Source of the DNA: Cyanidioschyzon merolae
Lineage: Eukaryota
NCBI GenBank assembly: GCA_000091205.1
Contig: AP006495.2
Length of the DNA: 64,000 nt
Strand: one strand, 5' to 3'
The position numbers and the translations under genes were made by a program. This document shows positions 1,835 through 53,957 of this stretch, one piece after another; within the stretch, counting starts at the first letter, position 1, and every line of letters begins with the position of its first letter. The notes under the pieces were generated by a model, which ran no database searches, was not told where the DNA came from, and was given only the letters and a program-made list of their open reading frames with translations.

Positions 1835-1889
1835 CACACCACCATGAACCTCTTTATATTCTGAAATTGGCGCCTCTAGGCTACTCAAC

Positions 1890-33420: not shown

Positions 33421-34833
33421 ATGCGAGTCTTGGAGCGATTATTTTGGCGGTCTGAGCGAGCGGGGCGACCGCAGGGTTCGTCCCTGGACCAAGTGCCCGG
33501 AAACGAGTCTCAAGCGTTAGGGGACCTGTCTGGGGAACTGGAACACCCCAGGTCAGGGTTTCGAGACGAGCTCGCGGTTCGAGATTCCACACATGCCCAC
33601 AGCGACAACAGTGGCGGCACCGGCACCGATCGTGCTATACCAGCGTTGTCGAAAAGACTCAGTGGTGGTGGTGCTTCCGGCGAAAGCACCACCATGGTGC
33701 GTGCTTTTCCTGAGCACCAACGTCTGAAAGCATTCCAGGAGCTCGAGTGCCTTGCCTTTGACGAGAAAGGCAACTTTGAGAGGCGAGCGGTCTCCCGACT
33801 GGAGCTCCTTCGAGCAGCGCGCTCTGTCCAGTCTGCCCTGATCGACTATCCGCCGTTGCTCAGCGATTCGGGCGATGACCTCAGCCAGGAACAAATAGCG
33901 AAACTGATGAAACGTCGCCAAAAGCGGATACATGAATATAGACAGAACTTTCTGCAGATTCGGGATCTGCGTCAGATTGATCCGAGTTTCGCCTCGAAGA
34001 CAGCGCTTTGGGTACGTCAGAACGTACTTATTATCAGCTTGTTGCATATTCGGGCACTAATTTTTGCAGATCGTCTTCTGCTTTTCGACCCGGACGCACC
34101 GGAAGTGCAAGAGACCTCGTTGGTGATTCGAGAACGGCTGCGCTCGGTGCCGGTCGATCGTGATGTCTACGCGCCGTTCGAGTTCCGTGCGCTGGAGGCT
34201 TGCTTCATATGCGTTTGTAACGCCCTGGAGCGAGAGCTCGGTGCGTTTGAGCCTTACTTGATGCAGCTTTTGGAAGATCTCTCTCGAGAGTCTACCATGC
34301 AGAAGATTGAATCACTGCGAATGCTCAAACTACGCTTGAACGGATTTCTAGCGAAAGCACAGGATATTCGTCAGACGCTCAAGTCGGTACTGGATGAAGA
34401 TGAAGATATGGCCCGACTCTATTTGACTGAGCTCCGAAAGCAGCATGGCAAACCGCGTACGACTGAGGATCACGAAGCTGCCGAGCAGCTACTCGAGTCG
34501 TATTTGCAGTTGGTGGACCACGTTCACAACCGAGCTGAGCTCCTCGACGCAGCCACAAGCGATACGGAGGATCTCCTGAGTATCCAGTTGGACGCGATGC
34601 GGAATCGACTGCTTGTTCTCGATATGTCGATTAGTGTGGTCACGGGCGCCTTCAGCTGGGCGGATGTCGTCATCGGGCTTTTTCACATGAATTTGCAGCT
34701 TCCAATCTATGGGGAGAACGGCGGTAGTGTCGGCTGGTTTATCGGTGTAGTTTTTGTGATGCTCGCCTGGGCACTCCTGCTTGTGGCCATCATGTTCACT
34801 TGGATTCGACGCTCGGGTCTTTGGCATGCGTAA
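33421..34833 (+). CDS. CorA/MRS2-like Mg2+ transporter family protein with a variant selectivity motif (HMN in place of GMN)
   Basis: A long coiled-coil soluble domain is followed by two C-terminal TM helices that flank 'GLFHMNLQLP' (compare Mrs2 'GIFGMNL'). The HMN tripeptide is encoded at 34684-34692. Confidence 0.55.
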   Translation: MRVLERLFWRSERAGRPQGSSLDQVPGNESQALGDLSGELEHPRSGFRDELAVRDSTHAHSDNSGGTGTDRAIPALSKRLSGGGASGESTTMVRAFPEHQRLKAFQELECLAFDEKGNFERRAVSRLELLRAARSVQSALIDYPPLLSDSGDDLSQEQIAKLMKRRQKRIHEYRQNFLQIRDLRQIDPSFASKTALWVRQNVLIISLLHIRALIFADRLLLFDPDAPEVQETSLVIRERLRSVPVDRDVYAPFEFRALEACFICVCNALERELGAFEPYLMQLLEDLSRESTMQKIESLRMLKLRLNGFLAKAQDIRQTLKSVLDEDEDMARLYLTELRKQHGKPRTTEDHEAAEQLLESYLQLVDHVHNRAELLDAATSDTEDLLSIQLDAMRNRLLVLDMSISVVTGAFSWADVVIGLFHMNLQLPIYGENGGSVGWFIGVVFVMLAWALLLVAIMFTWIRRSGLWHA

Positions 34834-35755
34834 CGTTTGGAGTGTTCGAACAAAACTGCGGATCCTGCACAAGCCGGAACGCTGGCTAGTATGTTGCGTG
34901 AACGCCGCGAGAGAGATGGACGGTATCCGTGCGCTTTGGACCATACGCATGGACATGGGTCAGACTGCTTCGCCCGAGGAACCTTGAAACCGATGAGGCC
35001 TGACCAGCTGCGCATTTCAGCAGCAACTCGGCGAGTCTGTCGAGACACAACAGAGACCAGGTTCGGAGACCGCTTTCGATCTTGAATGGATCATCGTCTT
35101 GGCGATACGCTTTCCACCCAGATGGCGTTGACCAAAGCACTGATAAACCTTTGTCTTTCGAGAGCGAATCACGCGGAACTTTGTTCCTTCATAATATCCC
35201 CCGAATGAGCAAACGTGAATAGGCTTGCAGAGGCTGAGGAGCACTCGTTCATGCACAACATGGATCCGTCAACTGATAGACCGATCTGATCCTTTTGAGG
35301 AAAAACATGTTCAGCGCATGGAAGATATCCGGCGAACGTTTACGGCGGCTATTGCCTGCTTCTATATGATGGTAAGCAGTCAATAGCCGTGAATATATTC
35401 TTCTGACAATCATATGTTTTGTATTGTCTTCTTCATACTACACTGGGCATTGAAACTCACGCCGTGCTTTCCCCGGGCGCTGCTGGAGAGCACTTTCGGA
35501 ATCATGAAGCCGGCTTCGGCCAGCGCACCAGTCTGGGACATAGTGGATGAAGTGGCTTGCTCAGAAACACTCCGTCGTCGTCCTCCATTGCTGGTCACAG
35601 ACGTCGCCAATGAGGAGCAGGTTCTGCAGCGCCGAAACAACGCCCAAAGCGCCGCTCTATTCTAAACACCTCTGCCCTGAGCGAGGCGACAATTGCTTTC
35701 CATAGATGCGAATTATAGATAGAAGTACCGAGTAACGGAATGTTCTTATCCATCG

Positions 35756-36504
35756 AATAGCCAGGAAAAACTGTACATGGTGAATTGGTGTGGTGCTCGG
35801 GTCTTGCAGTATTGCTGAACCGTTCTGTATCAGCGTGTGAGCAGAGGCGGGAATCCGATTCTCCCTCTTGAACAGTGATGTTTCTCCATTGCATATAGAT
35901 TCCGTTTCCAGCACCAGGGCCTCACTGGGTGCCAGAGGATTCCCTCAGAACTTCGCTCGACACCAAGCCGGTGGACGCGATGGCAACAAGCGCCCGTCCC
36001 GGATGTTCAGCGAGGCGATCATTCGTAGGTGCAGAGTGTCCTTGAGCGCATTCTTGCCGGGGGAATCATGCTACAGCATGCCTCCGATCTTCGATAGCTC
36101 CGCAATCTGAAATTTGATCAGCTTGCTGTTCGCCATCTCGTGAATCTGGCTCTGTCTCATGCTCTTCTTCTGTATTCGTTTCACTGTGCACCGGTACTGG
36201 CGATGCACGTACATCGTCCTGAACGCATCTATGGGAATCGTGCAGCATCGATTCGTGCACTTGCTTGGTGCTGTCGCTGAGGGCACAGGATTAGACTCTT
36301 GGGGTGGTACACAGCCCCCGTAGACATAGGCTACCACAACGCGACGAGAGTAATCGGTCATTTCCTTGCTGGGAGCCCCCAGAGGGCTTTGGTGAATGCA
36401 CGCATCTTGCCTCTGTAGAACCGGAGCCCGTCGGGGGCGTCAGTGCAGTCGCATGTGCTGCTCATACAGGTCCTTCGCATGAGCCATGTGGACGCCTTCG
36501 TACT
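35756..36504. repeat. Dispersed repeat, copy A (about 749 bp); direct repeat of 50031..50779 at roughly 98.5% identity
   Basis: Aligning the two copies base by base starts at 'aatagccaggaaaaactgtacatggtgaatt' and ends at 'gccatgtggacgccttcgtact'. There are about 11 mismatches. The flanking sequences are unrelated and I see no target-site duplication. Confidence 0.9.
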
Positions 36505-38309
36505 TTCTCTACGTGAAGCATACAAAGCTCCTGCCTCTGATCGAGACGGTGCTCAGAGGGCCATGATGGATCCTGGCACCCCCATTCGTGTCCTTGACAT
36601 GTCCCGTTGCCTGCATTATGCTCGACTGCCGATAATAAGGAGCTCTGAAAAAGTTGAGCAGCTTCATCTACTTTTCGTTCAGGTCCTCGGCTGCGTTCTC
36701 TTGATCTAGAGCCCAGTGACCTCCATGATATTCTTAAACATGGGATGCACGCACAGAAGAAAGGTTTTCTCTTTTTCTTTTCTGAACGCTTGAAACGGAG
36801 TCCCGTTGCCTGACGAAGGCCTGGATTCTACCACGTGCATATAGACTACAACGCCGTTGATCTCTCTCGTGTTCAGGAAGATTTTCCGTTCCATCCCGTT
36901 GAGCGAGCAACCCTGAATGAGCTCTGCCAATGCCGCATGCAAACTTGTCTGAATCTTTCATTTTTGCTCGCATAGACCAGCTCTCTCGTCGCCTTGTCCT
37001 TTACATGGCCGGATTGTATGCATCTGGTGACCAGATCCTCTATTTGTTTGTTTTCCTTGGAACCCAGGCACTTTGGGAGAACAGTGGTTATGAATCTGAC
37101 CTCATCTATGAGTGGATCTACTCATCCTCGAGCACCTTTTTGTCTACACCAACGCGAGCACGCCCGCAGACCGAGACGCACCTTTCCGCCTCCTGGACTG
37201 CGCGAGCTGACGGGCATCAGAGCAGCTCAGGCTTCGTGAATGCCGAACAGGATTCGTCGAAGACCGGTGTCGCGGACTCGAACAACTCTTCTATTGATCC
37301 GGGGATGTTAGAATGGCGTTCCACATCAGAGGAAGCGATGTCCTCTTGATTGAACCAAGGGGAGCGTGCTTGCACGAACTGCAGCTCAATTAGAATCTAA
37401 GCTGTGTACTCTTTGATCGCTTTTGAGCGGTCGAAAGTAACGTTGTGTTAGAGCAGGGCAGAGCGATATAGAGAGGCATAGGTATGAAACGTGCTCTGAG
37501 AAAGGATGAGGTATGGATCGGTTCCATCCGATTGGCGATTTGTAGGCGATACACGACTGCATTGTCGCTGGGGCTGAAGCTGTCGTCATGCTCGCTTGTC
37601 GCTTCTTAACGATAAGCGGGTTTTCCTTCCCGGAGTACCCAGGTACAGGTCTAGCATTCCTCTCGCGAAAGAAGTCTCATCGCGTGAGAGGAGCATTCGT
37701 CGCTCCTGTAATACGCATTGATGATCCAATACGAAATTGATCACGTGCTGCGCAGGGCACGACAAACTCCCACAGAAGCGCACTTTCATCTCCGTCCATC
37801 TGTTCGTCTTCATCACCAGTCGAATCAAATGTGCGGAAAACTTCACATACCATGGCTTCTCTAATTGTATTGCTTAGAGAATGTATGGAATACAATGGGT
37901 TGACGAGTAGACATTCGCGCGGATAGATTTCATCAATTTCTGTTTCGGGTGCATAACGTTCAGACCGAGGACTACGACAAATGCGGTTCATCCACTTGCT
38001 AACCGTCAACTAACTGACTTGTGCAAAGTAGGCCTATTTTTCCGGCTAGCAATGACAGCACAAGTCTTTCGATGACCTTGCCCCAATGCATCGTATGCAT
38101 TTCTTGTGCTGACTACCTCTGAGAAAACCGAACAGAAACAAAAACGGTGTGCTGTTGCAGGTATCCCTGAATGCACTGCGCTGTGGCTCAGGAGAGGCGG
38201 CGCATGAACGCCAACGCGTAGCAGCGATACGATCCCTTCGAAACCGGAGAGCGTCAAAACGCTTTCGTACTCATTTTTTTCGAGGCACTCTCGTCGGCTT
38301 TCTCCCAGC

Positions 38310-41300
38310 ATGACCGCCTGGAAGCAGCTTGCTGCAGTAGATGTTGGTACGGTACGTCAGAAAGTCACCGTGGAAAAGCATCGCTCCACAACAAGCGGCA
38401 TCACCGTGTACCTGGCTCAGGTGCCGGGGCCACTCGTATGCGGAACGCTCGTTTTCGCCACCGAAGCACACAGCGATGCCGGCGAACCGCACTGCTTGGA
38501 GCACCTTGTCTTTATGGGAAGTGAGTCATATCCTTACAAAGGCGTGTTAGATCTCGTTGCAAATCGCTCGCTCGCCCAGGGAACGAACGCCTGGACGGAG
38601 ACCGATCATACGGCGTTCACCGTGGAGACAGTTGGGGCTCGTGCCTTCCTCCACGTCCTACCTGTGTACCTGGATCACCTGTTTTTTCCTCTACTTCGAG
38701 AGTCCGCGTTTCGGACAGAGGTCTACCACGTGGTTGGCGAAACTTGTGCGGACGCCGGTGTGGTCTACTCCGAAATGGAAGCCCGTGAAAACACTGCAGA
38801 GTCGAAAGGCCTCTTGCGCTGCCTCCGCAGCCTCTACGGCGAGCCTGCTCGTTGCGGATACGCTGCTGAAACAGGAGGCATCCTGGACGAAATACGCCAG
38901 CTTACCAATGAGCGCGTCCGAGCCTACCATCAACAGTTCTATCGTCCGGATAATTTCGCTTTATTCGTATCTGGCGTGGTGGACCGCGATCTCCTCTTCG
39001 CTACGCTATCAAGATTCGAGCAAAGGCTCGTCAGCGTATTCACAGCGACGCATAGACGACCGTGGTCGGAAAGGGTGCCGCCAGCGCCCCGCTTTGGCCT
39101 CGTGCGGGAGCGGGTGCTCTTTCCTGCCGAACGAGCTGACTGTCCAGACGAGGCCACCGATGACACCGGTATCGTCTTTATCGGATGGAGAGGTCCGCCC
39201 ATCCATGACCTGGTCATGCGTACCGCGATCGAGGTCATGAACGACTACTTGAGCGAGTCGGGGAACGCACCGCTTCAGGAAGCATTGGTGGAGTGCAGCG
39301 ATGCCTTCTGTAACGATGTTTCCTTCATGCAGATGGATTTTCGGATCACTGCCAACATCCTTCAGGTGGAAAACGTTCCAATGCATCGATTGGATGATGT
39401 CTTTGATCGTGTTATGGGGATTCTGGAGGTCACCCACGAGCAGGGCATCGATGTGAACGGACGTTTGCGTACCATCATCGAGCGCCGGCGCCGGCAGTTC
39501 TTTGCCGCCCTGGAGGACGGAGCGAACGATGCGATCCTATCATTGCTTATCCCGGAGTTTTTATACAACGATCAGGATGATCAGGGGTATTTTCGACAGG
39601 CACTCGACATGCCAGGGGTGCTGGCGCACTTGGCTGCTCTCGATGAGTCATTTTGGCGAGAGCACATCCTGCGGCGTTGGTACCTACCTGGGGATGGGGA
39701 TCACGGGGCCTCGCTGGTCAGCTGCATTGTCTGCCAACCAAGCAAAGATGAGGCAAATCGTTTGCGCACAGAGGCTGCACTACGTATCCAAGAGCGTCTG
39801 GAACGCTTGAGTGCTGCCGAGCGCGTCGCCCTGGGTCAGCGGCTGCAAGAGTCCGTGGCGGAGCACCAGGTGTCTATCCCGGAGAGCTTAGTCCCGGTGT
39901 GCTCTGGGTTGCTTGACCCTGCGAGCATCTCTCGTTTTCGGGTGGAAACGATTCGTATCGATGATGTGGGCAGCGGCGTGCGACTGCAAATTGACGACGT
40001 CGATTCCGAGTTTGTGCGGTTAACAGCGCTGTTGGATACTCGGGGCCTGAGCGGGCGTCAGCGGCTTCTCTTGCCACTGTTTTTGGAGACGCTCTTTAAC
40101 ACTCGCGTCGGAGAGCGCGATCATCGTGCGGTACGGGATGCGCTGTTGGCGGATACCGTGGATTACGGGTGCGCAATAGGACTCTCGAAAGAAGGTGGCG
40201 ACGCTGGTGCTGGCTTCGCCATTGGTGCGTTCTCCCAGCTGATTTCCGTAACCATCAAATCGGAACGAGCGCTCTACGAAACCTGTGTGCACTGGCTCTA
40301 CGATATTCTGTATCGCTCTCAACTGGAAACCAATCGAGTGCGTATCGCTGCACAGAAACTATTGAACGACGTAGCGCAGCACCGTCGTGACGGCTCCGCA
40401 CTCGTGGCATGGCTCTCGAACGAGGTCCTCTACGGGGCGAACGACGAGGCCAATATTCCAGCGATGGCACCCTTTCGCCAGCGCCACTTGTTGCGACAGG
40501 TTTTGAAGCTGCTGGGTGAAAATCGCAACGATCGTGATGAGGATGAACACGACGACGACGATGAACACGACGGCGATATGAAGTACGACGACTGCGGCGA
40601 AGCGCACAGCTTTGACGCTCCCGAACGCGTCATTCCGTCTACGCTGCACCACCGGGCAGATGAAATGCCGTCGAGAGTCTGGACGGCGAACGCGCTCGCC
40701 ACGGATGCTTCTGCTTCTCCGGACTGGTCAAGGACGACGGGCACAAGCCAGCGATATTCGATGACAGCGCTGCTTGATGAGCTGGAGGCGCTGCGAAGAA
40801 GCCTCACAAGTCCCGGCAAGGTGTTCTTGCATGCCGTTTTACATTGCGATGAGCGTTTAGATGCCCTGTTAGAGCCGTGGAAGCAGACGTTTGGTGTTAT
40901 CAGCGGGATGCTCCCGAACGGCAACGGCCCGCTACCAGCTCATCCACAACTCGTTCAGTTTTCGCACGAGGTGCGCCCCAGTGCATCAGTGCCGCGCCGC
41001 TGCATCGTCGCCGGTGTCGACGGTGTCGATTCGTGTTACGCAAAACTCATCTCCGATGGACCGAAGAGCTTTCTGGACCCGGATTATCCGCTCTATTTGG
41101 TTTTGTTTGAACTGCTCGATGCACTCGAGGGACCGCTCTGGCGTGATATCCGGGGCGCTGGCCTCGCCTACGGATACAATCTCGGGTGTACGCCCGAGTC
41201 GGGGACGGTGTCTCTGAGCTTGTACCGCTCGACTGCTTTCGAGGGCGCCTTGTCTGCGGCGTTGGGCGTATTAGAGCGGTTTCATCAGCAACCTCAGGAG

Positions 41301-41657
41301 CTAATCGATGAAAACACCGTTGCATCGGCGTGCTCAGGCGTCTTGTGCACGCTGCTGAACCAGGAGAGCACAGTCGAGGCTGCGGCTTTCCAGCGACTAT
41401 GCAACAGTTGTCGCGGTTTCGAAGGTGACTATACCGGCGAGCTTCTGGCCAAGGTTATTAACGTGACGCCCGCGAAGCTTACCGAGTTTGCAACTCGGGT
41501 CTTGGCGGCTTTTCGCCTCGAGCATTGCCTTGTGACGGTTGTAACGAATCCCGCCAAGGCTCCTGCTGCCATGGAGGTGCTCCAGTCCAGAGGTGCGTTG
41601 CGCACTACCTGCGTCGATTCACTGGATGATTTTTTTGCATTGGAGAAAACAGTGTAA
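38310..41657 (+). CDS. M16 (pitrilysin/insulinase) family zinc metallopeptidase, 1115 aa
   Basis: 'HCLEHLVFMGSESYPYKG' is the inverted HxxEH zinc-binding motif of M16 peptidases. The size and an acidic low-complexity insert ('DEDEHDDDDEHDGD') fit the long eukaryotic M16C-type enzymes. Confidence 0.8.
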   Translation: MTAWKQLAAVDVGTVRQKVTVEKHRSTTSGITVYLAQVPGPLVCGTLVFATEAHSDAGEPHCLEHLVFMGSESYPYKGVLDLVANRSLAQGTNAWTETDHTAFTVETVGARAFLHVLPVYLDHLFFPLLRESAFRTEVYHVVGETCADAGVVYSEMEARENTAESKGLLRCLRSLYGEPARCGYAAETGGILDEIRQLTNERVRAYHQQFYRPDNFALFVSGVVDRDLLFATLSRFEQRLVSVFTATHRRPWSERVPPAPRFGLVRERVLFPAERADCPDEATDDTGIVFIGWRGPPIHDLVMRTAIEVMNDYLSESGNAPLQEALVECSDAFCNDVSFMQMDFRITANILQVENVPMHRLDDVFDRVMGILEVTHEQGIDVNGRLRTIIERRRRQFFAALEDGANDAILSLLIPEFLYNDQDDQGYFRQALDMPGVLAHLAALDESFWREHILRRWYLPGDGDHGASLVSCIVCQPSKDEANRLRTEAALRIQERLERLSAAERVALGQRLQESVAEHQVSIPESLVPVCSGLLDPASISRFRVETIRIDDVGSGVRLQIDDVDSEFVRLTALLDTRGLSGRQRLLLPLFLETLFNTRVGERDHRAVRDALLADTVDYGCAIGLSKEGGDAGAGFAIGAFSQLISVTIKSERALYETCVHWLYDILYRSQLETNRVRIAAQKLLNDVAQHRRDGSALVAWLSNEVLYGANDEANIPAMAPFRQRHLLRQVLKLLGENRNDRDEDEHDDDDEHDGDMKYDDCGEAHSFDAPERVIPSTLHHRADEMPSRVWTANALATDASASPDWSRTTGTSQRYSMTALLDELEALRRSLTSPGKVFLHAVLHCDERLDALLEPWKQTFGVISGMLPNGNGPLPAHPQLVQFSHEVRPSASVPRRCIVAGVDGVDSCYAKLISDGPKSFLDPDYPLYLVLFELLDALEGPLWRDIRGAGLAYGYNLGCTPESGTVSLSLYRSTAFEGALSAALGVLERFHQQPQELIDENTVASACSGVLCTLLNQESTVEAAAFQRLCNSCRGFEGDYTGELLAKVINVTPAKLTEFATRVLAAFRLEHCLVTVVTNPAKAPAAMEVLQSRGALRTTCVDSLDDFFALEKTV

Positions 41658-41963
41658 ACTTGCGGTCGAAGTGCTGATACGAAAGAAACGCGCTTCTCTT
41701 CAAGGCGCGGTGGTCTACAGCACGCGCCATGCGAATGGCACCTGCAAGACCCAAGTACACCTGCGATGCGACTTTGGTGCAATTAGCCGGAACGTTTGTC
41801 GCGAAAGCACTCCTGCTACTGCTCCTGGCTCTCTGCTTCCGCCAGCAATGTCCGTGTGTCGTGCGTCTTTCTCAAACGTTGCGGAGGCATCTAATGAACA
41901 GCCCTGTCTCGCGTGTATGGCCACCTTCACATCTGTGCGGAGCGCATTCCGTCGACAACGATT

Positions 41964-42635
41964 TCACGGCTGCAAACGCGTCATGCGCCATTGCATATCA
42001 TGGTCACTCGATTTCGAGTCCCTTTCGAAAAGCAGTCGATCGTGCAAACGGTTCGCGCGACCTTTCCAGAACTCCAAACGCAAAGCGTGAAGCCGATACC
42101 CGCCCCAATGTGGCGGTCGCGGTACTTCTCCATTCGCAAAGCGCTCCTCTACTTGGGCTGCTTGTCGCTCCAACGCTTCACGACTCGTAATTGGCCGAGA
42201 CTGCGCCGAGGCCCATGCACCCAGTCGCGAACCCAGAGGTCTCGATGCGAAATACGCATCCGAATCGGCAGTGGAGAGTCTCTCTACACTGCCTTCGACT
42301 CGGACGGAACGCTCTAGCTCCGGCCACCAGAATACGAGCGCTGCGCGAGGATTCCGGTCGAGTTCTTGCGCTTTCCTAGACTCGTAATTCGTATACCATG
42401 TGAACGTGGCTCTCTCGAGGTCGAGACCCTTGAGCAGAACCATTCGTGCAGCTGGAACCCCGTCAGGAGTCGCCGTTGCTAGCGTCATCGCGTTCGGCTC
42501 ATAACTCTTAACCCGAATCGCTTCATCAAACCACTTTTGGAACAGATGCATCGGCGAGCCTGCTGCACGAGCCTCCTCTTCGGTAAGCGGTGTATTCGAG
42601 TACTGTACTCGCAGTTTCGCGACCTCGTCGGTCAT
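41964..42635 (-). CDS. PNPO: Pyridoxamine 5'-phosphate oxidase
   Basis: The FMN-binding split-barrel region ('RMVLLKGLD...FTWYTNYESRKAQEL') and the C-terminal 'HWGGYRLHALRLEFWKGRANRLHDRLLFER' match PdxH/PNPO. The start was set at an internal ATG (42635); the upstream in-frame extension may instead be a targeting peptide. Confidence 0.8.
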   Translation of the reverse strand: MTDEVAKLRVQYSNTPLTEEEARAAGSPMHLFQKWFDEAIRVKSYEPNAMTLATATPDGVPAARMVLLKGLDLERATFTWYTNYESRKAQELDRNPRAALVFWWPELERSVRVEGSVERLSTADSDAYFASRPLGSRLGAWASAQSRPITSREALERQAAQVEERFANGEVPRPPHWGGYRLHALRLEFWKGRANRLHDRLLFERDSKSSDHDMQWRMTRLQP

Positions 42636-45600
42636 GGTAGCTCTCCAGCGCAAACTATGTGCCGTCCAACGAGCCAGGCGGGTACGCGTTTGTACTGTGT
42701 TGACGCACCTGCAAAACATCAAGCCTACGCCGCGCCTGAGTGCCTCCTGCAGCACTGGAGCGCCCTCTCTACAACGTGGCGTTTGACCACAGCGACGCCG
42801 CCCAGAGTCAGCGGAACGCACGTACGCCTCCTTCGTTGCTCGCTACGTGAAGAACCTGTGGCACCTCGAAGGGTACTGGAAACCGTCCTTCGACGAGTAC
42901 CTGGTTAGCAAGTTCTTGGCCTGCACATAAATCCCGTGTTTCCCACGGGTTGCTCTAGCGACTCGCAACGTGAAACTGTGACACTGATGCTGCAAATGCG
43001 TGTGCGGATCACGCACGCTGTCCCAAGTGCACGCATGCGCGTGCTGGACACGTGTGCATGATCGCCGCGTTGCACCTGCTTTTCTTCTCGATCTATCTAC
43101 CCATTTCGGTATAAAGTGCAAGGGCTCCACTTTGATGATGCAGAGGTGCACGTTTCAAGTTTAGGGATGTTCCTGTTGTGACTAACGCAGGCCTTTGTTG
43201 GCTTCTTCTTTGACAGTTTTCTTTTCAGTTTTTGCATCTCGGGCTTTGAATACACCGATCCCTCCTGTCTCCTTGTTACGGTTTCAGAAGTCGAAGGATG
43301 TTGATGGGAGCCTAAAAATGCTGTCCTCACAACTGCCGGCTATTGTTCAAGAATTCCGTGCACATGCAAACAATGCAACAGACGCTTCTCTTGCTTATAT
43401 CATCTTCTTCGTATGCGGCATCGGTGCGCACTTCGTAACGGTAACACTTGACTGTGGTCAGGTTCTCTCATGTATCCACCACATTCCGCCTTCGAGCTCA
43501 GCCCTGTGCCCCTTCAGCGCTTGATTCATCGCTCAGTATACGCCCTTAACTGATGCAGTAGGCTTGACTTGATGCCGTTCTCCGTTTCCGTATACGTCGC
43601 CGTACGCCGCGATCACGGGCTTCCTCTGAGCGATGCGACCGACGAGGACGCTGTGGGCTGAACACGCTAGCGCAAGTCGTCCCAGTCCATACAGGATTCG
43701 AGGAGTGCAATGTTTTCCGTGATGAAATGAGAATGGAAGGGAAAATCGAGGCTATTGCAAAGGTCGAGAAATCTCGATCCACGAACGCTCCGATCGTGGA
43801 AAGCGGTGGCGCACGCTCCGCTAGCGGCGATCGCTCTAATGACTGACGTCTGAACCCGAGACCCTTTTCTGCGCAAGCAGCAGAGACAGGAGCCTCTACC
43901 AGCATATCTTGTGAGAGGCATGGTGCTGCTGGTGTGGAATGCAGGGTCATCGATTGGGACAATGAGAGGAGAGTTTTTTTCTTTCGAGCAGGATCGATCA
44001 CTGGACGTGACAAGTTCAGGGAGCGTTCGGCACTAGCCTATGCGCAAGTCGTCAAGCGACGACGGAGAGTACTTTTCATCGTCTAGCCAGCCGGCGAATT
44101 CCTGCGTCCACTATTTTCCTTTAAACGGAATGTAGAAACCTTGAGGAACGCATGATTTGCGCATGATACTTGTGAGGAAAGGAACGGACTGGAGGCTAGT
44201 GCGAACGAATTGTATCATAATTTTATTTATTATACGAACTCTTGCTTGAGTGCATCGCGAATGATCCTGAATCCGGTGATATAAAGAGTTCTTTCAGCAT
44301 AGCGTTGAGAAAGCCACATCGAATACCTGGCTGCGAATCCTAAAACCATGTATGCATGAACGATGCTCGTTGCTACACTTCGACAGCTGAGGCCAGGCAT
44401 CTAAGAAAGGATCGGAAGAAATTCCAAGGCAGGAACACGGCAAGCAGTACGACGTCCCGTGTTAATCGGACAGGCGTATAGGCTCGATGCATTTCAGCGG
44501 ATATTCACCAGCGATAGGACTACTGCAGATAACCAGCGAAGAAACGCCACTGTTCCACAAGATTCATGTATGGTGTAGGATCAACGCTCCTTATGAAATG
44601 TCCTCCCGCGGTGCAACTGCTGATGATCACCAGAGAAGAACGCTCTCCGTAACTCCACGGAAACTTCCAAGCATCAGCAAGAGCCGTTCAGTGTTTGCGG
44701 CAGGTTCAAGACTTTGCTCGAGCAACTTGTCGGGTGCCGAGCCCAGCCTGCTGTCCGTACAGACATAGGACGGGATTGTGGTCCCTCTGCTATGATCGCC
44801 TTAACAACTGCCTCTCATCGTTCCGAATAAAAGGCACCTAGATCCGCAGATAGAAACTTGTATTTACGCTTGTTTCGCCCAATCTAGACGTTGCAACCGA
44901 CTGCACCAAGCTCTTCGTCTTGAAATCCCTCGAGCCGTCCATTTCATTATCGCATGATTCATTAGTGCGCAACTCGTCGCTTAGAGCATGCCGTGTGTAC
45001 CAGACGATCCATTCGCCGAAAATCGAGCGCCAAACCAAGCATTTACCGCTGACAACGACTCGCTCCATACACGCCGACGAGCCGTGCTGCACAGCTGTTG
45101 GTAGTGACCCGTCCAGCAAGATAACCACTCGGACGAAGGTTATCAGGACGACGATCTATATGGTCATTCGTCCCCGACCTGAAAAACACCGAGACATGTG
45201 CACCACCATGCGCTATCGAAGCACCGAAATAAAACAAGTTTCCTCTCCAGTGAGGACGCCTACCGCGAGCTCATAATCTCGACCACCGCCATCAGAACTT
45301 GCATGACCACGCCCTTCATCCTGAGGCATACCGCCCAGGGAATCCTTATGGTCTCGCTGACGCGAACACGCCAGCGTCGGTGCCACAGGACTGCACGCGA
45401 AACGGAACGAAGCGGACACGTGGTTGCTAGTCCCACGGCGCCAACGTACCCTTCAAATCACTTGGCTATCACTTCCTGCCGGATGTGTCCATGTCCTCCG
45501 TCTCTACCGCAACAGGTGCGCCAGTGTTGTGCTTGTCATGCATATTCATATCCAAGTACGCGCGCATGTCCTCGATCGAGTCGCGACCTGGAGCACCAGC

Positions 45601-47695
45601 GGAGCCAACGGTCGAAGAGCGCGGCGTCCGCGTTGGCGTCGGCGCACACTCTTCCCGTTTCGGACACCCCTCCCTGAGCCAGTCAAAAAAGGCTCCAGGT
45701 CCGACTTCATAGTGCCCATCACGCATCTTAAACCGTGTCACGAGACACATACTGAACACAGATACAAGCGCCAACGCCAAACTTGAACGTGTTGGTTGCT
45801 CGCTGATCGCAGGCGCCGCCACGTCAGTTGTGGCTGCGGCGGCGGCGCCGCCCCGACGGGCTACCCCCTCCAACGGCGATCTCATCGATAGGACGTACGA
45901 AACGACCAGAATATCCGAGATGAAGTATAGGTAATGTAACTTGGGAGTAGGGTGTTTGATGGATACCTCACCGCGCACTGAAAACACACACACAAAAAAA
46001 GTAAGAAAAGAAAAATGCGCATAATCGGAGAACGCTGGCCTATGGAAACGGTTTGTCTATGGAAAAAAGAAAGAAAAACGGCGATCTCAGTGCGCAGCGC
46101 CCGGATGCCGTTGCACGGCGTTGCGGCCCCGAGCGCAGACAAGTAGGTGTTGGTGCGAGAGTCTGGGGCAGACTCGACATTCAGCGTACATGTATGTGGA
46201 TTCTTGGATTGGACAGAGATCGCTGACGGAGATACTGAGATGATCTTGTTCGGTATGTAAATCTCGTGGCATTTGTTGGTGAAGTGTAGGCAATTTTCAG
46301 TTTACCAGGAACTGTGCTTCGGGAGTCATCAGGGTCGATCGCATAACTCGATATCCGTAGACTGTGTTCGAAGTATTGTGGAGGCTGTCTGATTTTGACG
46401 GGAGCAGCATGGACCGCAAGTCTGCGCTCTATGCGTAAAATTCTATTGGCAGGAGCTCGGGAAGGAGCAAGAAACATCGCTTGACGCTCTCGAGTCGCGC
46501 ATACAAATCCGGAATCAGTGGAGCCTCGCCCCGTCACTAATGCTTGGCGGTCTCTTGCTTGGTTACCGACCGTCGTCGCACAAGCAATGAAATCGAGTCA
46601 GCGTCTCCAGTTCTATCGTAGAGAAGATGCAGCATAGCTGCGCTCTTTGCTAAGGGGGCAATCCATCGTAGACCGGGGCGCTCAACATCTGCAGGTGCTT
46701 GATCGATCACTCCCGGTGGAGGAGAATGTCGAGACTTTCGAAATATCGAGCGGGCACGGCACAGGCAATGTCTCGTGCTCTCCTGGGACCCGCTTGAATT
46801 TGTTTCCGTGCTTCAGCTTGATGTAATGAGCGACACGAGAGTCGAGGTTCATCTAGATTTGATTCGTGTCCATCGTGCTGGAAAGGCCCCGAGCATCTGC
46901 GTCAAGCCGAAGAAACCCGCCTTCATTCACCTTTACGGATCTTGTCCTTTGGTATGTCCTATCGTTCTTCCGGGTCAGAGATGATCGAATTCATTAGTGC
47001 TCGGCATGAGACTCGAGCCGATGGTGTTCTCCATGTCGTAACGGTTCCTCGCGGTACAGGCGATCTCGCAAGCGTAGAAAAGATCGTATCAAGGAACGAG
47101 CGCGCGCTTATGGCCTCTTCGCTCATCCATGCTTTCGCCTTTTTGTACCAAAGTCCTTTCGGTGTCTATACGAAATGAAACAAACGATAAAGTGAACTGG
47201 GTCAAGAGTCGCGAGAGAGATTCCTTAGAACGTGGACCTTCCCGAGGGCGCTGGCTTCCCCTCGCGTTCAGTCGCCCTTGAAGACTCCATAAGCGAGACG
47301 ACGGACTTTATCTATTCGCGATGACGAACTTGGCGGAGAGAGGTCAGTTTAAATTTGGTGACGATGAATTGCGCTTGGGCCATTTCTTCGGGCTCGTCGT
47401 CTCCTCTCTCTCTCACCCGAAGCATCGTGCAGCACATTTCCTCTGAATTCCAGAGCATGTGCTACCCTTATACCGATGGAATCATTTTTCTCTCCTGGTG
47501 AAGCGCACCCTCAACCGCTAATTCGCTCAAGAGATCCGAAAATTCGATACACCTTTTCGTTGCTACAGGGCGAATGCACCAGTTTGAAACATGCACGACT
47601 GGGTTCCTGCATGCCCAAGTGCCATCTCGCCACCACGCTCAGGCGCTAAGGTCGCGCTGGCGTGTGTATAGCGCCCCTCGTATCGGTAAGCAAGT

Positions 47696-48139
47696 ATGTA
47701 CGTGGCGCTTATCGCACAGTGGCAGCGACGAATACTCGTGGACACAGCACTTCGGAGAATGTCGTCTTGTACACTGGGGACACCTCGAAGAGACGTATCT
47801 CGTGAAGCCCGTTGTGTGCCGTGCGAGGGCATCGGGTCGGCGCTCAGCGCTGAGCAAGTGGCGGAGTTGGTCGCCACCAAGACACCCCAGTGGACGACAA
47901 CTCCTGACACAAAACGTCTGCATCGCACTTGGGTTCGTCCAAACTTTAAAGATGCTATGGAATTTTTGAACCGTATAGCGGATGTTGCGGAAAAGGAAGG
48001 ACACCACCCGGACCTGCACCTCACGAACTGGAACCGTGTTCGCGTGGAGCTCTGGACGCACGCTCTGGGCGGTCTCACCGAGAACGACTTTATATTGGCT
48101 ATGAAAGTCGATGAGATAGCAGAGCAAGGTCAAAAGTAG
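47696..48139 (+). CDS. PCBD: Pterin-4a-carbinolamine dehydratase (PCD/DCoH)
   Basis: 'EGHHPDLHLTNWNRVRVELWTHALGGLTENDFILA' contains the PCD signature [EQ]-x-HHP. The N-terminal extension suggests organelle targeting. The long antisense ORF 47639..48271 is treated as spurious. Confidence 0.75.
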   Translation: MYVALIAQWQRRILVDTALRRMSSCTLGTPRRDVSREARCVPCEGIGSALSAEQVAELVATKTPQWTTTPDTKRLHRTWVRPNFKDAMEFLNRIADVAEKEGHHPDLHLTNWNRVRVELWTHALGGLTENDFILAMKVDEIAEQGQK

Positions 48140-48603
48140 GCCATGATTTGGAGCAAGAGCTATTGCGAGGGTGCGGAAGCGACCGGAGTTGTTTACGTTG
48201 CGGCGCTCGATGAGGGCGATGAAACTGGAGTTTCCGCTCGCGTTGACGTAGTAAGGTCGAGGAGCGCGCACCAGTTGGCTTCGGGCGCGCTTTCATGGCG
48301 GGGTTTCCCAGCGCTCGCAGGCGATCGTCCGGTGCCTGGTAACGTACCGCTTTTGCAGACGTCGTTGGCCCGGCGAGCTGCAGGCTTCAATGGACCGCGA
48401 TGGTCATCGCAACCAGGCCGCAAGATACACACTAATGGGAACCACAGTTTACGAATTGACCTCAAGGGGGATTCCTGCGTCACCTGATCAAGCTAGAGAG
48501 ATCTTTCCTACGATCAAATGGGCCCCAGAGGAGCTCCTTTCCTTCATAGCTTGCGCTTGTAGCGTCTTTTTGCAGCCATACTAAACGAACCTTTGAGGGA
48601 AAC

Positions 48604-49734
48604 TTATGCCGGAATTCCACCAGGCGGATCCCATTTTGAACCAAGCTCGCTTAGTTTCTTGTGGGCATTTGCATAGTCCTCGAAGAACTTGGCCTCATCG
48701 GTGGCATAGATCTTCACGTACTTGTTGAATTCCGGATCTTCGACGAGAGCCTTGTCTGTGACGAGCTTCAGAAGCTCCGGATCAGCATTCGGATCCATGA
48801 GCACCTTGAAGTACATGTTGTTGAACTGGAGCCAGTCCGGTGTCCAGGAGCTGCCTCCCTTGGTCACACCGCTCACTGCGCGCGTATACTTGGTGCCCTC
48901 CTCACCGGCGCCGAAGCCACTTCGGAACTTGTACGCGCGTCCAATGGTATGGCCACCGCTCAGTGCAACGATCTCCTGGTCATTGAAACCCATCCGATAG
49001 AAAACCCTACGCAAATGCGCGGCAGCGTCCTCCTTGTCGGGCGCGGGCTCGTTAGGATTCTCACCCTCGGCCTTGTGGAACGGTGGACCGCCCGCCGGGA
49101 GTCGACCCTCTGGTGGCACCTCATTCTCCGACTGGGCATCGACACGGCCGAAACGGAACGGAATCTTGGGCCCGCCTGCAACCTCGATCGACAGAACACT
49201 TGCGTACTGAATAAGATCAGCCCATCCTACGTTTGGGTACTTCTCTTTGATTGGTTTCAACAGGTTCAGAGCGCCCGGGAGACCAACATTGCCGCCATGC
49301 TGGAGTTCCTTATTGAAACGAATAGAGCCGTTCGCACCGCCCGTTCCCAGGCGTGCGTCGTAGTCTCCCGAGTCGTGCCACGCCAAGCGTACCAGGATCG
49401 GCATCGCTTTGGTACGCTTGATCATTTCAACAAGATCGTTCCGAACAGAAGTCATCGTCTGTGTGTCGATTGCCATGGTCACAAGCCTTCGCGTCGGTGC
49501 CTGGGTGTTGAGTCTCAAAACTGCCGCGCCGCGGTACGCTTCACGTTGCACAAAATAAGAACTGAATCGAACTTTGTTCGCAGAACGCACTGAAACACTG
49601 CTGATTCTTCTAACCTGAATAGAGCGCAACGAAGGAAAACTTACAGCGTTTGAAAAAGCAATCTGTCCTGAATTCATCGAGCTACGGATACCACTGTACC
49701 CGTTACGTAAAAGTGAGCACGACAGGATACGCAT
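48604..49734 (-). CDS. APX: Class I heme peroxidase (ascorbate peroxidase / cytochrome c peroxidase family) with an N-terminal presequence
   Basis: 'LAWHDSGDYD' contains the distal His, and 'ALSGGHTIGRAY' contains the proximal His. The similarity to APX/CCP runs through to the C-terminus. About 90 aa of Ser/Arg-rich N-terminal extension precede the domain. Confidence 0.8.
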   Translation of the reverse strand: MRILSCSLLRNGYSGIRSSMNSGQIAFSNAVSFPSLRSIQVRRISSVSVRSANKVRFSSYFVQREAYRGAAVLRLNTQAPTRRLVTMAIDTQTMTSVRNDLVEMIKRTKAMPILVRLAWHDSGDYDARLGTGGANGSIRFNKELQHGGNVGLPGALNLLKPIKEKYPNVGWADLIQYASVLSIEVAGGPKIPFRFGRVDAQSENEVPPEGRLPAGGPPFHKAEGENPNEPAPDKEDAAAHLRRVFYRMGFNDQEIVALSGGHTIGRAYKFRSGFGAGEEGTKYTRAVSGVTKGGSSWTPDWLQFNNMYFKVLMDPNADPELLKLVTDKALVEDPEFNKYVKIYATDEAKFFEDYANAHKKLSELGSKWDPPGGIPA

Positions 49735-50030
49735 GAAGTGTAGCTCGCGATGTCGCGATGCCGCCCTGCCGAAGCGTTCGGAAGGCGGCGGGATCGCTGT
49801 GCTCGCGCATCTGCAGCCATTGGTGCAACGCGTACGCCGCGATGCACGCGCCAGGTACAGGTGTGCGCTGGCGATCGGCGCGCATCCGCTGGCGTGATCA
49901 GATTCGTCTCGAGGCTGATCGCCGCGCTGTGCCGCATCGCCGCTGGGGTATGTTGTGAAGCGCGCGCGCTCTGTACCCCGCTTATGAATGCGCGATCATA
50001 TCGCATGCTGGATCATCTTTCTTGTCGACC

Positions 50031-50779
50031 AATAGCCAGGAAAAACTGTACATGGTGAATTGATGTGGTGCTCGGGTCTTGCAGTATTGCTGAACCGTTC
50101 TGTATCAGCGAGTGAGCAGAGGCGGGAATCCGATTCTCCCTCTTGAACAGTGATGTTTCTCCATTGCATATAGGTTCCGTTTCCAGCACCAGGGCCTCAC
50201 TGGGTGCCAGAGGATTCCCTCAGAACTTCGCTCGACACCAAGCCGGTGGACGCGATGGCAACAAGCGTCCGTCCCGGATGTTCAGCGAGGCGATCATTCG
50301 TAGGTGCAGAGTGTCCTTGCGCGCATTCTTGCCGGGGGAATCATGCTACAGCATGCCTCCGATCTTCGATAGCTCCGCAATCTGAAATTTGATCAGCTTG
50401 CTGTTCGCCATCTCGTGAATCTGGCTCTGTCTCATGCTCTTCTTCTGTATTCGTTTCACTGTGCACCGGTCCTGGCGATGCACGTACATCGTCCTGAACG
50501 CATCTATGGGAATCGTGCAGCATCGATTCCTGCACTTGCTTGGTGCTGTCGCTGAGGGCACAGGATTAGACTCTTGGGGTGGTACACAGCCGCCGTAGAC
50601 ATAGGCTACCACAACGCGACGAGAGTAATCGGTCATTTCCTTGCTGGGAGCCCCCAGAGGGCTTTGGTGAAAGCACGCATCTTGCCTCTGTAGAACCGGA
50701 GCCCGTCAGGGGCGTCAGTGCAGTCGCATGTGCTGCTCATACAGGTCCTTCGCATGAGCCATGTGGACGCCTTCGTACT
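50031..50779. repeat. Dispersed repeat, copy B (direct repeat of 35756..36504)
   Basis: See copy A. The offset is 14275 bp. This copy lies in the 5' flank of the peroxidase gene. Confidence 0.9.
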
Positions 50780-53364
50780 ACATGGAGCTTACATCATGTC
50801 CCGCCAGTTCCATTCTTCTGTGTCAGAATTGCTAGGGCACGACGGGTACGATCCAAAGAGGGTGCGTCCCAGGAAGCGCTCGGCATTGACCCGCGGGAGG
50901 TATTTGAGGTTGTTTTCAATTTATCATTGACGCTCGCGGCTTACATTTGGTGATCGCTGACGTTGCTCGGCGTTGTGCCAAACTATACAGGGAAGCCTGT
51001 ATAAAGATTTCGGATCAAAAGATCAGTCCGTCAGACGTCTTCTATCCCGATCATCTGTTGTCCTGCGTTGCGAAGGTGAGATCGAAAGATATCCAGAGAA
51101 ATATGGATAGATGGCAGCGCTGCGTCCGGATTTCATGCGATCAGTTGCTTGACGATGTGGGCCAAAGCGAGAGAAGCAGGCGAGCGTTCCTCAAATGAGA
51201 AGCCACGCGATCTTTCCTAGCGTCCATCAGCTCGCGTAAGAAAGGTGAACCCGCAGATGCGTTTTCGTAGGGAGGCCATGCCAACGGTTTCAGGTTGATC
51301 TCTCAGCCCCGATAGGTTTTCTTTCTGGTTCCTCGTCGTCCTGCGTTCTGTACAAAGTTGCTGCTTTTGCCCCATGAGTCCTGCACCTTCTACTTCTCCG
51401 CGTTCGCCCATACTTGGTGGAGAATCATGAACGTATACCCATACTCCATAACCGTTCGTTTTTCTTGGGATTCTGATGCGCCGTAAGGGCGGAATCATTG
51501 AAGCGCCACTGCTCTATTGATGTATTTACGGTCCCGTAACTACTTTTTCGTGATCCCCGTTCCGACCGTGTCCATAAACCGCAGCGCGCTTGTCCTCTGC
51601 CTCGCGCATACGACGAGCAACACTGCAGATCCGGGCTGGTCAGGGCAGGGAACAACTCGACCAAGAAGGATGCCATGGATGTGTTCGAGTCGTCCGTTGA
51701 TCCGTAAGCGTCGAAACGGTCTCTGACAACAGAGAAGACGCCTGCGACTCGATTCAACCCAGGAGCATACACTGGCACCGAGAGCACTTCAACTCGAACC
51801 GCAACTGCATGCACCGTTCCCGCTTGTGTGAGTGATAGAAAGCGGCGTTATGTAAGAGCAGGCGAGAGGCGTATGGAAGGAAAAGTCCTGAAGTGCTTCG
51901 ACGAAGCGTGAGGTGATGAACGATCTTACCCGATTGGCGATTTGGCGGCAACTATACGATAGCTACGACGCTATGACTGTTTTTTTAGTTACGGTCGCTC
52001 GTTTCACCTCTGCAAACAGCGGTTTGTTCCTTGTTGAGAACACGTGCACAAGTCTGCGATTTCCCTGGGACGAGGTCCCTTCGAGTGAGACGGAGAACCG
52101 TCTCAGATATAGGAAGCATTCGCGTTTCTGTACGAAATCGATGGCGTGCTTTTCAGCACGGGACCGTCCCGTACGGAAGCACGCTCTTTCATCATGTCCA
52201 TGTGTTTCTCTCGATAAGCATTGGTATCAGCGGTGTGGAAACTCCACACGCTTTGGCTTCTTTGGAAGAAGTTCGTTGAGAATGTTTGGAGTGAATTGGG
52301 TTGACGAGGAGACAGGCGCGAAAATAGAGTTTCATAGGTTCTGTGTTTTGGGTACACGACGCGTAGGATAGAGGACTACCAGGAAGGTGGTTCCTCCACC
52401 TGCTCATCGTTCAATGAAAGACTCGCACATGTAAGACCTTTTTTCGCAATCTAGCAGTCGCAGCATCAATTAGCTCCAAGACCTTCCTCCGATCTACACG
52501 ATGCATTGTTTTTGTGAAACATGCTCGGGTGATACAGAAACATACACAAAATGGACGTCATTGTATATGCGTCCCCGAAGGCACTGCTCGATTCGGAGCA
52601 TACCAGAAGCGTGTCGTTCTACCAGAATCGACTCGGCCATATGGAGGTTTCCTCTGAACACTCCATATATTACAGCATTGGCCTTGGATCAATACAGTCG
52701 ATGCTGCGGCTAGCGCGCATACACGCTGCAACCTTCGCTCGCGAACAGCGTTGCGACCGATCCACCGTCGGTATCATCGCATGCACGCAAACCGATTGGC
52801 TTTGAATGGAATACACTACGAGAGACTGAACTGACTCGCCTGGATGTGCAAACGCTTCTGGTTAGCGGCGCTCCGACTTGCCCAGGAATGTGTGGTCTTA
52901 TCGAAACTTTGTCGCCTGAGAGCACTGCAGGACCCGGAGAAAGCGCTTCAATCGATTCAATTTTTTATTCATTGACAGAACGTTTCCTTAGGCCAGCGTT
53001 CTCCGATTATGCGCATTTTTCTTCTCTTACTTTTTTTGTGTTTTTTCAGTGCGAGGTGTGGTATCCATCAGCTCCCTACCTCCATGTTACATTACCTATA
53101 CTTCTTCTCGGATATTCTGGTCGTTTCATACGTCCTATCGAGTGTGTGCCTAGTGCCTGCCGAAAGCGACCGCACCGGCGCCTAAAGCGCCGGTGCGTCA
53201 ATCGATGCAATACTGGCATTCGCGCCCTGGCCCCGATCGATGACCCGAAGATCCGCCGCCCGCGACATCCGGACGCACCCGCTATCGGTGCGCGCATGCA
53301 TCATCGGCGCATATCGAGACGTGAACCCTATATATATCAATTCTAGTGCCTAACTGAACGAAAC

Positions 53365-53465
53365 GGGGTGCTGGTCTATCGTTACAGGGGATCTGGTGGT
53401 ATGATTTGCCGTTAGGGAATTCTCCAACATCGGCAAGGTCCCGGGTTCAATTCCCGGGCACCCCC
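53365..53465 (+). tRNA. tRNA-Pro (anticodon AGG) gene with two insertions: about 17 nt in the D-loop and a canonical 12-nt intron between positions 37 and 38
   Basis: Acceptor GGGGTGC (53365-71) pairs perfectly with GCACCCC (53458-64). U8-G9 follow, then D-stem GTCT/TGAT. The D-loop is 24 nt and ends in GGTGGTA. Anticodon stem TGCCG/CGGCA flanks the loop TT-AGG-G, then the intron AATTCTCCAACA, then T38. Variable loop is AGGTC. T-arm is CCGGG-TTCAATT-CCCGG. The discriminator C is followed by A then TTTTT, a Pol III terminator. Apart from the insertions it is strongly similar to metazoan tRNA-Pro. Confidence 0.6.
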
Positions 53466-53957
53466 ATTTTTGCCCGTCTTGAACAAGTCGGTCTTAATAT
53501 CGATACGCGACCTCCTTGAGCTTGTCCCGAAGCGTGCGTCTGAGAACCGTGCTTCTGCTGCTGCACGAGTGCTGCGCACAACGGAGCTGTGCATCTGGGC
53601 TGCTGCTGTGCGCGTGCATCGCTCCTGAAAAGCTGCTTGACTGGGCGCCTTGAACAGGCGACTCTAGACTCGCGGGTCAGCGCGAAGCCGGAGGACCAAG
53701 GAATCTGGTGCGGGACGCGCCGCTGCTGGAAAGCGACGCTGCAGTCCTGCGCCGAACGCGTGCGGAACACTGGTCGTTGTTCACGTGGTCGTCCCGTCGC
53801 GAGGAGCGCGCGCTGAAGTTTGATTTGACGCCACCGCACGGCAAACGCCGTTTCGGCTCGACCTAGCTTAGATCGTAGACGGGGCAGCGCCGGCATTGAG
53901 CCCCCGGAACTGACGCAAGGTGCAAAGAACCGAGTCGTCCGAGTTGACGTCAGTCCA

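Follow-up and report, generated by a model that had tools for sequence, protein, structure and literature searches.

A 749-bp tract shared by two old, non-coding element copies on chromosome 13 of Cyanidioschyzon merolae 10D has, with a probability we put at about 75%, been homogenized by recurrent interlocus gene conversion between these neighbors. The two tracts are direct repeats at 35756–36504 (unit A, plus strand) and 50031–50779 (unit B, plus strand) of the window, the whole 64,000-nt stretch of DNA analyzed here, and differ by 10 substitutions in 10D. Self-BLAST of the window aligned 35743–36504 with 50019–50779 on the same strand at 98.16% identity (762 columns, 13 mismatches, 1 gap, E=0), the sole pair above 90% identity within the 64 kb. 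A MAFFT alignment and a separate repeat search concurred. Start-to-start distance is 14,275 bp and the gap between the units is 13,526 bp. The same-orientation pair described in an earlier note on this DNA is real (749 bp with 10 mismatches; 98.2% over 762 bp by BLAST).

The block between the units (36505–50030) holds the rest of element A, a family-2 repeat, ORFs without domains, and four genes assigned by Pfam: M16 peptidase (38310–41657, plus), PNPO (41964–42635, minus), pterin-4a dehydratase (PCD; 47696–48139, plus) and ascorbate peroxidase (APX; 48604–49734, minus). The M16 protein matches BAM81011.1 of C. merolae 10D exactly. An earlier count of five housekeeping genes was slightly generous, as four carry Pfam domains. 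Unit B starts 297 bp upstream of the APX ATG (49734, minus strand), in the peroxidase promoter region as had been proposed. Gene order in the block is the same in the sister genus Cyanidiococcus (L011), with the repeats absent from the orthologous sites.

Ten environmental contigs carry unit B at the same position, and 7 of them break off within it; a contig found via a Tfb2 look-up likewise ends at the unit. Five independent environmental assemblies (L040–L044) cover both copies in the same context and another (L045) covers B and extends into A. Since the 10D reference is moreover a finished genome (PMC1955436), an assembly artefact, named in the earlier note as what would refute the pair, is excluded.

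Neither unit is a free-standing repeat, an LTR or a duplicated gene. Both form the 5′ portion of longer copies, approximately 2.5 kb each, of a dispersed, non-coding element of about 3.4 kb (family 1), three copies of which (A, B and C) lie in the window, their ends being estimates from a five-copy alignment. Element A (~2.46 kb; ~35727–38190, plus strand) was recovered by nhmmer with a copy C query at 35760–36981 and 36989–38188, and stops, at its 3′ end, ~120 bp short of the M16 peptidase ATG. Element B (~2.6 kb; ~49997–52600, plus strand) was recovered at 49989–50794 and 50799–52605. The longest copy, C (~3.36 kb; 6300–9659, minus strand), is 57–60% identical to A and B over their full length, the unit included, and has orthologues at 99% identity (L020, L022, L028 and L029). 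Two further loci were found in C. merolae-like contigs from hot-spring metagenomes: G (L017/L039), an internal-deletion form, and H (L013/L026/L030/L038), of ~0.9 kb. A preference of the element 3′ end for promoters of co-oriented genes was considered and rejected; it fits A and C and is unsupported by G and H.

Colinearity of elements A, B and C extends over 2.4–3.4 kb; they share their ends and differ in their internal deletions. Identity between copies is 55–64% throughout the family, and the 3′ parts of A and B are ~61% (61.5%) identical. Compared with copy C, element A lacks Cel 1327–2244. Element B lacks Cel 903–1692, an indel state identical in the environmental copy G, and B and G are colinear over the deletion junction. 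Cel 904–1276 is present in both A and C and missing from both B and G. A and B thus belong to different indel subfamilies, which excludes that the elements as wholes descend from a recent common ancestor.

Against this background, identity between A and B changes abruptly. Per 100 bp it is 98–100% inside the tract and at most 69% elsewhere in the elements. Around unit A it drops to ~60% within 30 bp leftward and at 36505 rightward. The tract extends from ~30 bp inside the element 5′ end to ~20 bp before the internal deletion breakpoint of B, and at both sharp edges the sequence is still homologous to copy C. The 749-bp stretch is therefore not the repeat unit it was first taken for, but a homogenized segment within a ~3.4-kb element, of which the two ~2.5-kb copies are ~61% identical outside it. 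Both edges fall inside older homology, which a recent duplication alone does not account for; of the two origins offered earlier, recent duplication or ongoing gene conversion, the latter is the better option.

The same observations bear on a more elaborate duplication. It is very improbable that the pair is a composite or LTR-like mobile unit, a recent segmental duplication carrying the 13.5-kb block, or an artefact of assembly. The direct orientation would suit such a unit, as would a circular 14,276-bp contig (L046) that is exactly the block plus one unit, but that circle can be a cycle in a de Bruijn graph. The units run on into old homologous sequence on both sides, the block genes keep their order in Cyanidiococcus without the repeats, no gag/pol or transposase domain, TIR, LTR or TSD was found, and both copies occur in normal contexts in at least six independent assemblies and the finished genome.

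Searches for TIRs, LTRs and TSDs in A, B and C returned short chance matches only. LTR retrotransposons were tested for and no LTR termini, no TSD at the units and no gag/pol were found, the interior being host genes syntenic with Cyanidiococcus; these termini searches and Pfam agree with the earlier note on all three points, and Nozaki et al. describe a genome without LTR elements (PMC1955436). The test for class II elements or MITEs found no TIR at the ends of A, B or C and no Pfam domain, and that for non-LTR elements or SINEs found no terminal A tail and no reverse transcriptase domain; the copies keep both ends and vary by internal deletions.

Could the tract instead be functional, as a non-coding RNA, regulatory module or small gene whose two copies stay alike through purifying selection? 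We consider this quite unlikely. The position of copy B ~300 bp upstream of the peroxidase gene would agree with it, as would a 255-codon open frame in the consensus of the family-1 5′ region. That frame was rejected as coding: its amino-acid composition is odd and unlike that of a real protein, it lies on an A-poor strand, where stops are expected to be less frequent, it contains three stops even in copy C, and it has no homologue at E≤10. Rfam gave no match in the units (whole window at the gathering threshold; 49700–54000 at E≤1), ARAGORN no tRNA in the units, and Pfam no domain in ten ORFs in and around the units or in six frames of copy C. Exact-protein look-ups of two element ORFs (139 aa and 104 aa) returned no record, and the element copies carry no gene annotation in the 10D proteome. 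Mismatches between copies showed no period-3 signal in 25 family-1 and 11 family-2 pairwise alignments. Copy C and the others are ~60% identical over the same segment, and the elements are missing at the syntenic Cyanidiococcus locus. Diversity relative to 10D is ~1–2% in the tract and ~0.7% in the flanks and block, which argues against purifying selection.

Polymorphism shared between the paralogs points to conversion that recurs. Among 32 variable tract sites in 10D and the environmental assemblies, none is a fixed A/B difference and 20 segregate for one identical pair of alleles in A and in B. With contigs spanning both copies left out, a more conservative choice, 9 of 27 sites are shared, against ~0.1 expected from the site counts. 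These data come from metagenome assemblies rather than phased reads, and an assembler can merge the two copies of such a repeat or thread a path wrongly between them. Single assemblies show 0 to 14 differences between A and B, in differing spatial patterns; the near-zero values in L040 (1) and L041 (0) may stem from a repeat edge that was collapsed.

Near-identical tracts would also arise without any conversion if a young mosaic subfamily, in which a still-active ~750-bp 5′ module had been joined to different old 3′ modules, had recently inserted twice. Internal indels shared by B and G define subfamilies, so deleted derivatives once propagated. We nevertheless regard this as unlikely: the tract begins ~30 bp inside the 5′ end and ends before the B breakpoint, leaving the element termini old, and the only two near-identical tracts are neighbors 14 kb apart. 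A scan of the metagenome collection with a 23-mer exact in A, B and C found no third near-identical copy, returning only the A, B and C orthologues and two ~60% copies; in 10D the comparison covered the 64-kb window, and a third donor could in principle lie elsewhere in that genome. Both insertions are common to all environmental strains, and alleles are common to both paralogs.

Our preferred reading is accordingly one of conversion, an ordinary process of copying between neighboring repeats. A and B are old, degenerate element copies of different indel subfamilies, 14.3 kb apart in the same orientation and ~61% identical elsewhere. One contiguous block of homology has probably been copied over from one element to the other through non-crossover homologous recombination, and repeated exchange afterwards would have kept the 749-bp tract in concerted evolution. 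Were crossovers to occur in the tract, the 14.3-kb block with its M16 peptidase, PNPO, PCD and APX genes would be excised or deleted; as the alga is haploid, such products are expected to be purged, so that only conversions persist. We infer the recombination mechanism, its recurrence and the purging of crossover products from these patterns. Telling against conversion, the founding event presumably took place between ~60% identical sequences, a poor substrate for homologous recombination, and this very low background identity makes it unusual. C. merolae does have highly efficient homologous recombination, and pop-out between direct repeats has been shown in it experimentally (PMC8504449, PMC13353863), in keeping with the earlier suggestion that such repeats can mediate recombination.

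Both recombinant junction types occur in metagenome contigs, as the closed circle L046 and as a deletion junction in L023, and both may be assembly chimeras. It is improbable, in our estimate, that they are real molecules and that the tracts form a natural recombination cassette in wild Cyanidioschyzon, with the 14.3-kb block looping out as an extrachromosomal circle or being amplified in tandem and the reciprocal deletion also arising. Such a cassette would imply copy-number variation of an oxidative-stress gene in a genome thought to be extremely static and simple.

C. merolae serves as the "simplest" photosynthetic eukaryote, with a genome often called almost repeat-free, a picture that this locus qualifies. 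Besides family 1, the window contains four copies of an unrelated dispersed repeat of ~1.4–1.5 kb (family 2). The two families together cover ~22% of the window, so that about one fifth of it consists of old non-coding dispersed families. The earlier suggestion that the units belong to an interspersed family holds; that such families are rare in this genome does not, given these two and a published family of 253 copies (PMC1955436). Copies still appear able to exchange sequence by homologous recombination, and would provide substrates from which deletions or circles around essential genes could form. It is exactly at the repeat pair that short-read assemblies break or are wrongly joined. Caution is warranted near family elements in designing homologous-recombination targeting constructs and in interpreting assemblies, although the practical reach is limited. 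The repeat pair reveals no new kind of system; it is of use as a small, naturally occurring case in which ectopic conversion can be measured, in a haploid alga whose sexual cycle has only recently been described.

Family 1 is probably the published "WSV repeat" (a name used in PMC5405695), a novel interspersed element with 253 copies, ~5% of the genome and an average length of 3.2 kb (Nozaki et al. 2007, PMC1955436). That repeat is transcribed and often marked by H3K27me3 (PMC1955436, PMC5405695). The two share the genome, intergenic dispersal and the lack of transposase or reverse transcriptase, and the ~3.2-kb average is close to the 3.36 kb of the longest copy here (A, 2.46 kb; B, 2.6 kb). 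The WSV repeat is defined by a truncated ORF that BLASTX finds weakly similar to WSSV wsv486 (PMC1955436); the family-1 ORFs had no homologue in a comparison that included no WSSV sequence. The two differ in density, which is higher here, at 3 per 64 kb against a published average of ~1 per 65 kb. Family 2 is an alternative candidate for the name. Its consensus ORF has a single weak match, to an unnamed metagenome protein, so that either family may bear the name; repeat coordinates are absent from the supplements of PMC5405695.

Among transposon classes, the pair resembles LTR and composite transposons in having two direct repeats of comparable size around several kb, and differs in lacking TG..CA termini, TSD, PBS/PPT and gag/pol and in enclosing conserved, syntenic host genes. 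Internal-deletion derivatives with conserved ends, as in family 1, look like those of class II transposons, although this is not a defining trait. Closer in organism is the direct-repeat pop-out used for marker recycling in C. merolae (PMC8504449; PMC13353863), in which repeats of a few hundred base pairs likewise flank a segment. Deletion and circle are its expected products, and both junction types appear in the metagenome contigs here, where they may be assembler chimeras. The natural block differs in holding four genes with housekeeping-type domains, so its deletion is expected to be deleterious.

The closest parallels lie in interlocus (ectopic) conversion and concerted evolution among yeast Ty/delta elements and primate Alu elements and segmental duplications. 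The C. merolae pair departs from these in its background identity of ~60% and in a recurrence that we infer from metagenome assemblies. It shares with them a near-identical tract of a few hundred base pairs within far more diverged paralogs, sharp tract edges, polymorphisms common to both copies with no fixed paralog differences, and partners that lie close together on one chromosome.

Self-comparison of the window returned a single strong repeat pair, 35743–36504 and 50019–50779, on the same strand and with 98.2% identity over 762 columns. Its near-identical core of 749 bp (unit A, 35756–36504; unit B, 50031–50779) contains 10 substitutions. The copies are spaced 14,275 bp start-to-start, with 13,526 bp between them, and the coordinates and figures of the earlier note were correct. 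MRS2 (33421–34833, +) lies to the left of unit A, which is followed by M16 peptidase (38310–41657, +), PNPO (41964–42635, −), pterin-4a dehydratase (47696–48139, +) and the peroxidase APX (48604–49734, −); unit B and Tfb2 (54009–56090, +) complete the order. The M16 peptidase ORF exactly matches BAM81011.1, on chromosome 13 of the finished C. merolae genome (PMC1955436), and the APX ORF matches the C. merolae 10D chloroplast ascorbate peroxidase at 100% identity.

More sensitive searches found homology downstream of the units as well (37209–38179 and 51612–52587), at only ~61%. A third, inverted copy, C, was located at ~6300–9659, with 57–60% identity to A and B along the whole length of both, unit included. 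The 749-bp unit is thus not the repeat unit, as homology extends past it into larger elements, hereafter family 1. Copy C (3.36 kb) was used as nhmmer query, and positions along it serve as element coordinates. Element A aligned over 136–1326 and 2245–3450, and element B over 91–902 and 1693–3465. Two further loci in environmental metagenome contigs were matched, G (L017/L039) over ~100–887 and 1687–3456, and H (L013/L026/L030/L038) over 114–635 and 3074–3472. This coverage indicates that both ends are common to all copies and that internal deletions are what differs. One indel state is found in B and G and the other in A and C, indicating that deleted derivatives once propagated. From a five-copy alignment, the element ends were placed at ~35727/38190 (A), 49997/52600 (B) and 9659/6300 (C). 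An interspersed repeat family, as proposed earlier, is therefore borne out by copies A, B and C and loci G and H. Its supposed rarity in so compact a genome is not, since family 1 and a second family described below together occupy ~22% of the window.

Identity between A and B, calculated per 100 bp, was 98–100% over 35796–36495 and at most 69% everywhere else in the elements. The left edge of the tract (35756/50031) lies ~30 bp inside the 5′ end of the element, where the three copies can still be aligned at ~55–60%. The right edge (36504/50779) falls ~20 bp short of the deletion breakpoint of B, and past it A stays colinear with C. The tract thereby coincides almost exactly with the only uninterrupted stretch of A/B homology in the 5′ half. 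With tract edges internal to old sequence, and with A and B in different indel subfamilies, recent common descent of the elements is excluded and the recent duplication suggested earlier is not supported. The pattern instead points to gene conversion between A and B, in which the tract of one copy would have been replaced by that of the other through homologous replacement. Potential donors were sought across the whole metagenome collection with a 23-mer (20 specified bases) that A, B and C share without mismatch. Its hits on C. merolae-like contigs were confined to orthologues of these three copies and to the ~60% loci G and H, with no further near-identical unit.

The locus is present in at least ten environmental contigs that are 98–99% identical to 10D. 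Of ten contigs retrieved by way of the peroxidase, seven break off within unit B, and three ~14-kb contigs (L047–L049) run from unit to unit. The latter extent is typical of a two-copy repeat and provides independent proof that both copies exist; both are spanned by contigs L040–L044. Polymorphism was tabulated from all sequences that a copy-specific flank ties to A or B, with the two hybrid contigs excluded. Within the tract there were 32 variable sites with no fixed A/B difference, and the same two alleles segregated in both paralogs at 20 of them. Contigs spanning both copies might include a collapsed repeat edge; a conservative set that drops them still had 9 shared sites out of 27. Independent evolution would give ~0.1 shared sites by our own calculation from the tabulated counts. 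The 10 A/B differences in 10D are spread throughout the tract; L040 has one, L041 none, and L042–L044 have 13–14, all inside 36255–36482. Certain sites change together in A and B from strain to strain; at 36464 and 36475, for instance, both copies carry A and T in 10D, and G and C in Ga0080006. Divergence from 10D was ~1–2% in the tract versus ~0.7% in the flanks or the intervening block, as expected if two loci pool variation and opposite to purifying selection. These data support recurrent A/B conversion, although they are assemblies and assemblers can mix the two copies. Ongoing conversion, raised in the earlier note, is upheld by the sharp identity step, the lack of fixed differences and the alleles shared between the paralogs. 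The observation in that note was sound and its interpretation partly so: gene conversion and a repeat family stand, and recent duplication, rarity and the 749 bp as repeat unit do not.

Two contigs carry recombinant junctions. The first and last 141 bases of L046 (ENA ERZ27249350, k141_233982; 14,417 bp) are identical, which makes it a closed circular contig of 14,276 bp. It contains the block and one hybrid unit, in the order APX flank, unit, 3′ part of A. The reciprocal, a deletion junction, is found in L023 (JGI20133J14441_1019557; 1,949 bp), which passes from the MRS2-side flank of A through the unit into the 3′ part of B. Treated as leads only, the pair matches both products expected from crossover between direct repeats, and pop-outs between such repeats serve as an experimental tool in C. 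merolae (PMC8504449, PMC13353863). The contigs may be either genuine structural variants or eccDNA or, equally, repeat-induced assembly chimeras, as a de Bruijn assembler can yield the same junctions at a two-copy repeat. Interest lies mainly in possible real structural variants around APX; for the conversion tract itself the mechanism is ordinary, the genome is well studied and the interest is modest.

Gene order at the syntenic locus of Cyanidiococcus yangmingshanensis is identical to that of the window. The M16–MRS2 spacer measures 681 bp there versus 3,476 bp in the window, and the Tfb2–APX spacer 1,891 bp versus 4,223 bp. No family-1 element was matched by nhmmer in the syntenic locus. 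These size gaps are consistent with the insertion of two elements in the Cyanidioschyzon lineage.

Other repeats were also observed in the window. Family 2 comprises four dispersed copies of ~1.4–1.5 kb, all on the + strand (11810–13188, 23935–25290, 42972–44508 and 56864–58362) and 55–63% identical pairwise. It lacks a period-3 signal and is non-coding by that test. The minus strand of its consensus has an open frame of 223 codons, for which one weak homologue turned up in a metagenome (P0155, E=3e-9). A ~190-bp repeat occurs at 52956–53141 (+), 45885–46075 (−) and 18207–18374 (−), two copies being inverted and 87–89% identical and the third more diverged. Some blocks of it, such as CTGGTCGTTTCGTACGTCCTATCG, are strongly conserved, and a T-rich run lies in its interior. 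Rfam gave no match to this repeat; it might represent either a gene for a small RNA or a fragment of a further repeat.

A tRNA-Pro(AGG) gene was located at 53365–53466 (+), with two putative short introns in the D-loop (53379–53395, 17 nt) and the anticodon loop (53419–53430, 12 nt). It is equipped with a T5 terminator and with a TATA-like box some 35 bp upstream. Ectopic-intron and permuted forms exist among C. merolae tRNA genes. A default ARAGORN scan of the window reported no tRNA and missed this gene. Removal of both inserts gave a canonical 72-nt tRNA-Pro(agg), and intron-permissive settings on the raw sequence gave an alternative tRNA-Trp model. Exons are conserved in the Cyanidiococcus orthologue (L011, 8728–8886), where intron sequence differs.

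The evidence points to family 1 being a dispersed repeat family that is non-coding by now. Pfam domains were absent from all frames of C and from the ORFs of A and B, Rfam and ARAGORN gave no match on the units, and no element ORF was present in the 10D proteome. Period-3 bias of mismatches between copies was absent in 25 of 25 alignments. The ends are without terminal inverted repeats, long terminal direct repeats or a terminal A tail. The element's + strand (35700–38200 and 50000–54000) has a marked shortage of A (AT skew −0.08 to −0.11). This makes stop codons less frequent in + frames and leaves copies and consensus with long open frames that are spurious. A 255-codon open frame in the majority consensus of the 5′ region was discounted as a sign of a gene on its non-protein-like composition, the A-poor strand and the absence of a homologue at E≤10.

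Elements A and C each have a co-directional gene whose start codon lies 120–225 bp downstream of the element's 3′ end, M16 peptidase at 38310 for A and a 1118-aa minus-strand ORF starting at 6074 for C. This is probably coincidence, as B, G and H do not follow the pattern.

An interspersed element of C. merolae, later named the 'WSV repeat', is often H3K27me3-marked (PMC5405695). Family 2 could be this published element instead of family 1. Family 1 agrees with it in size and distribution, and A and B are probably members of this already published repeat family.
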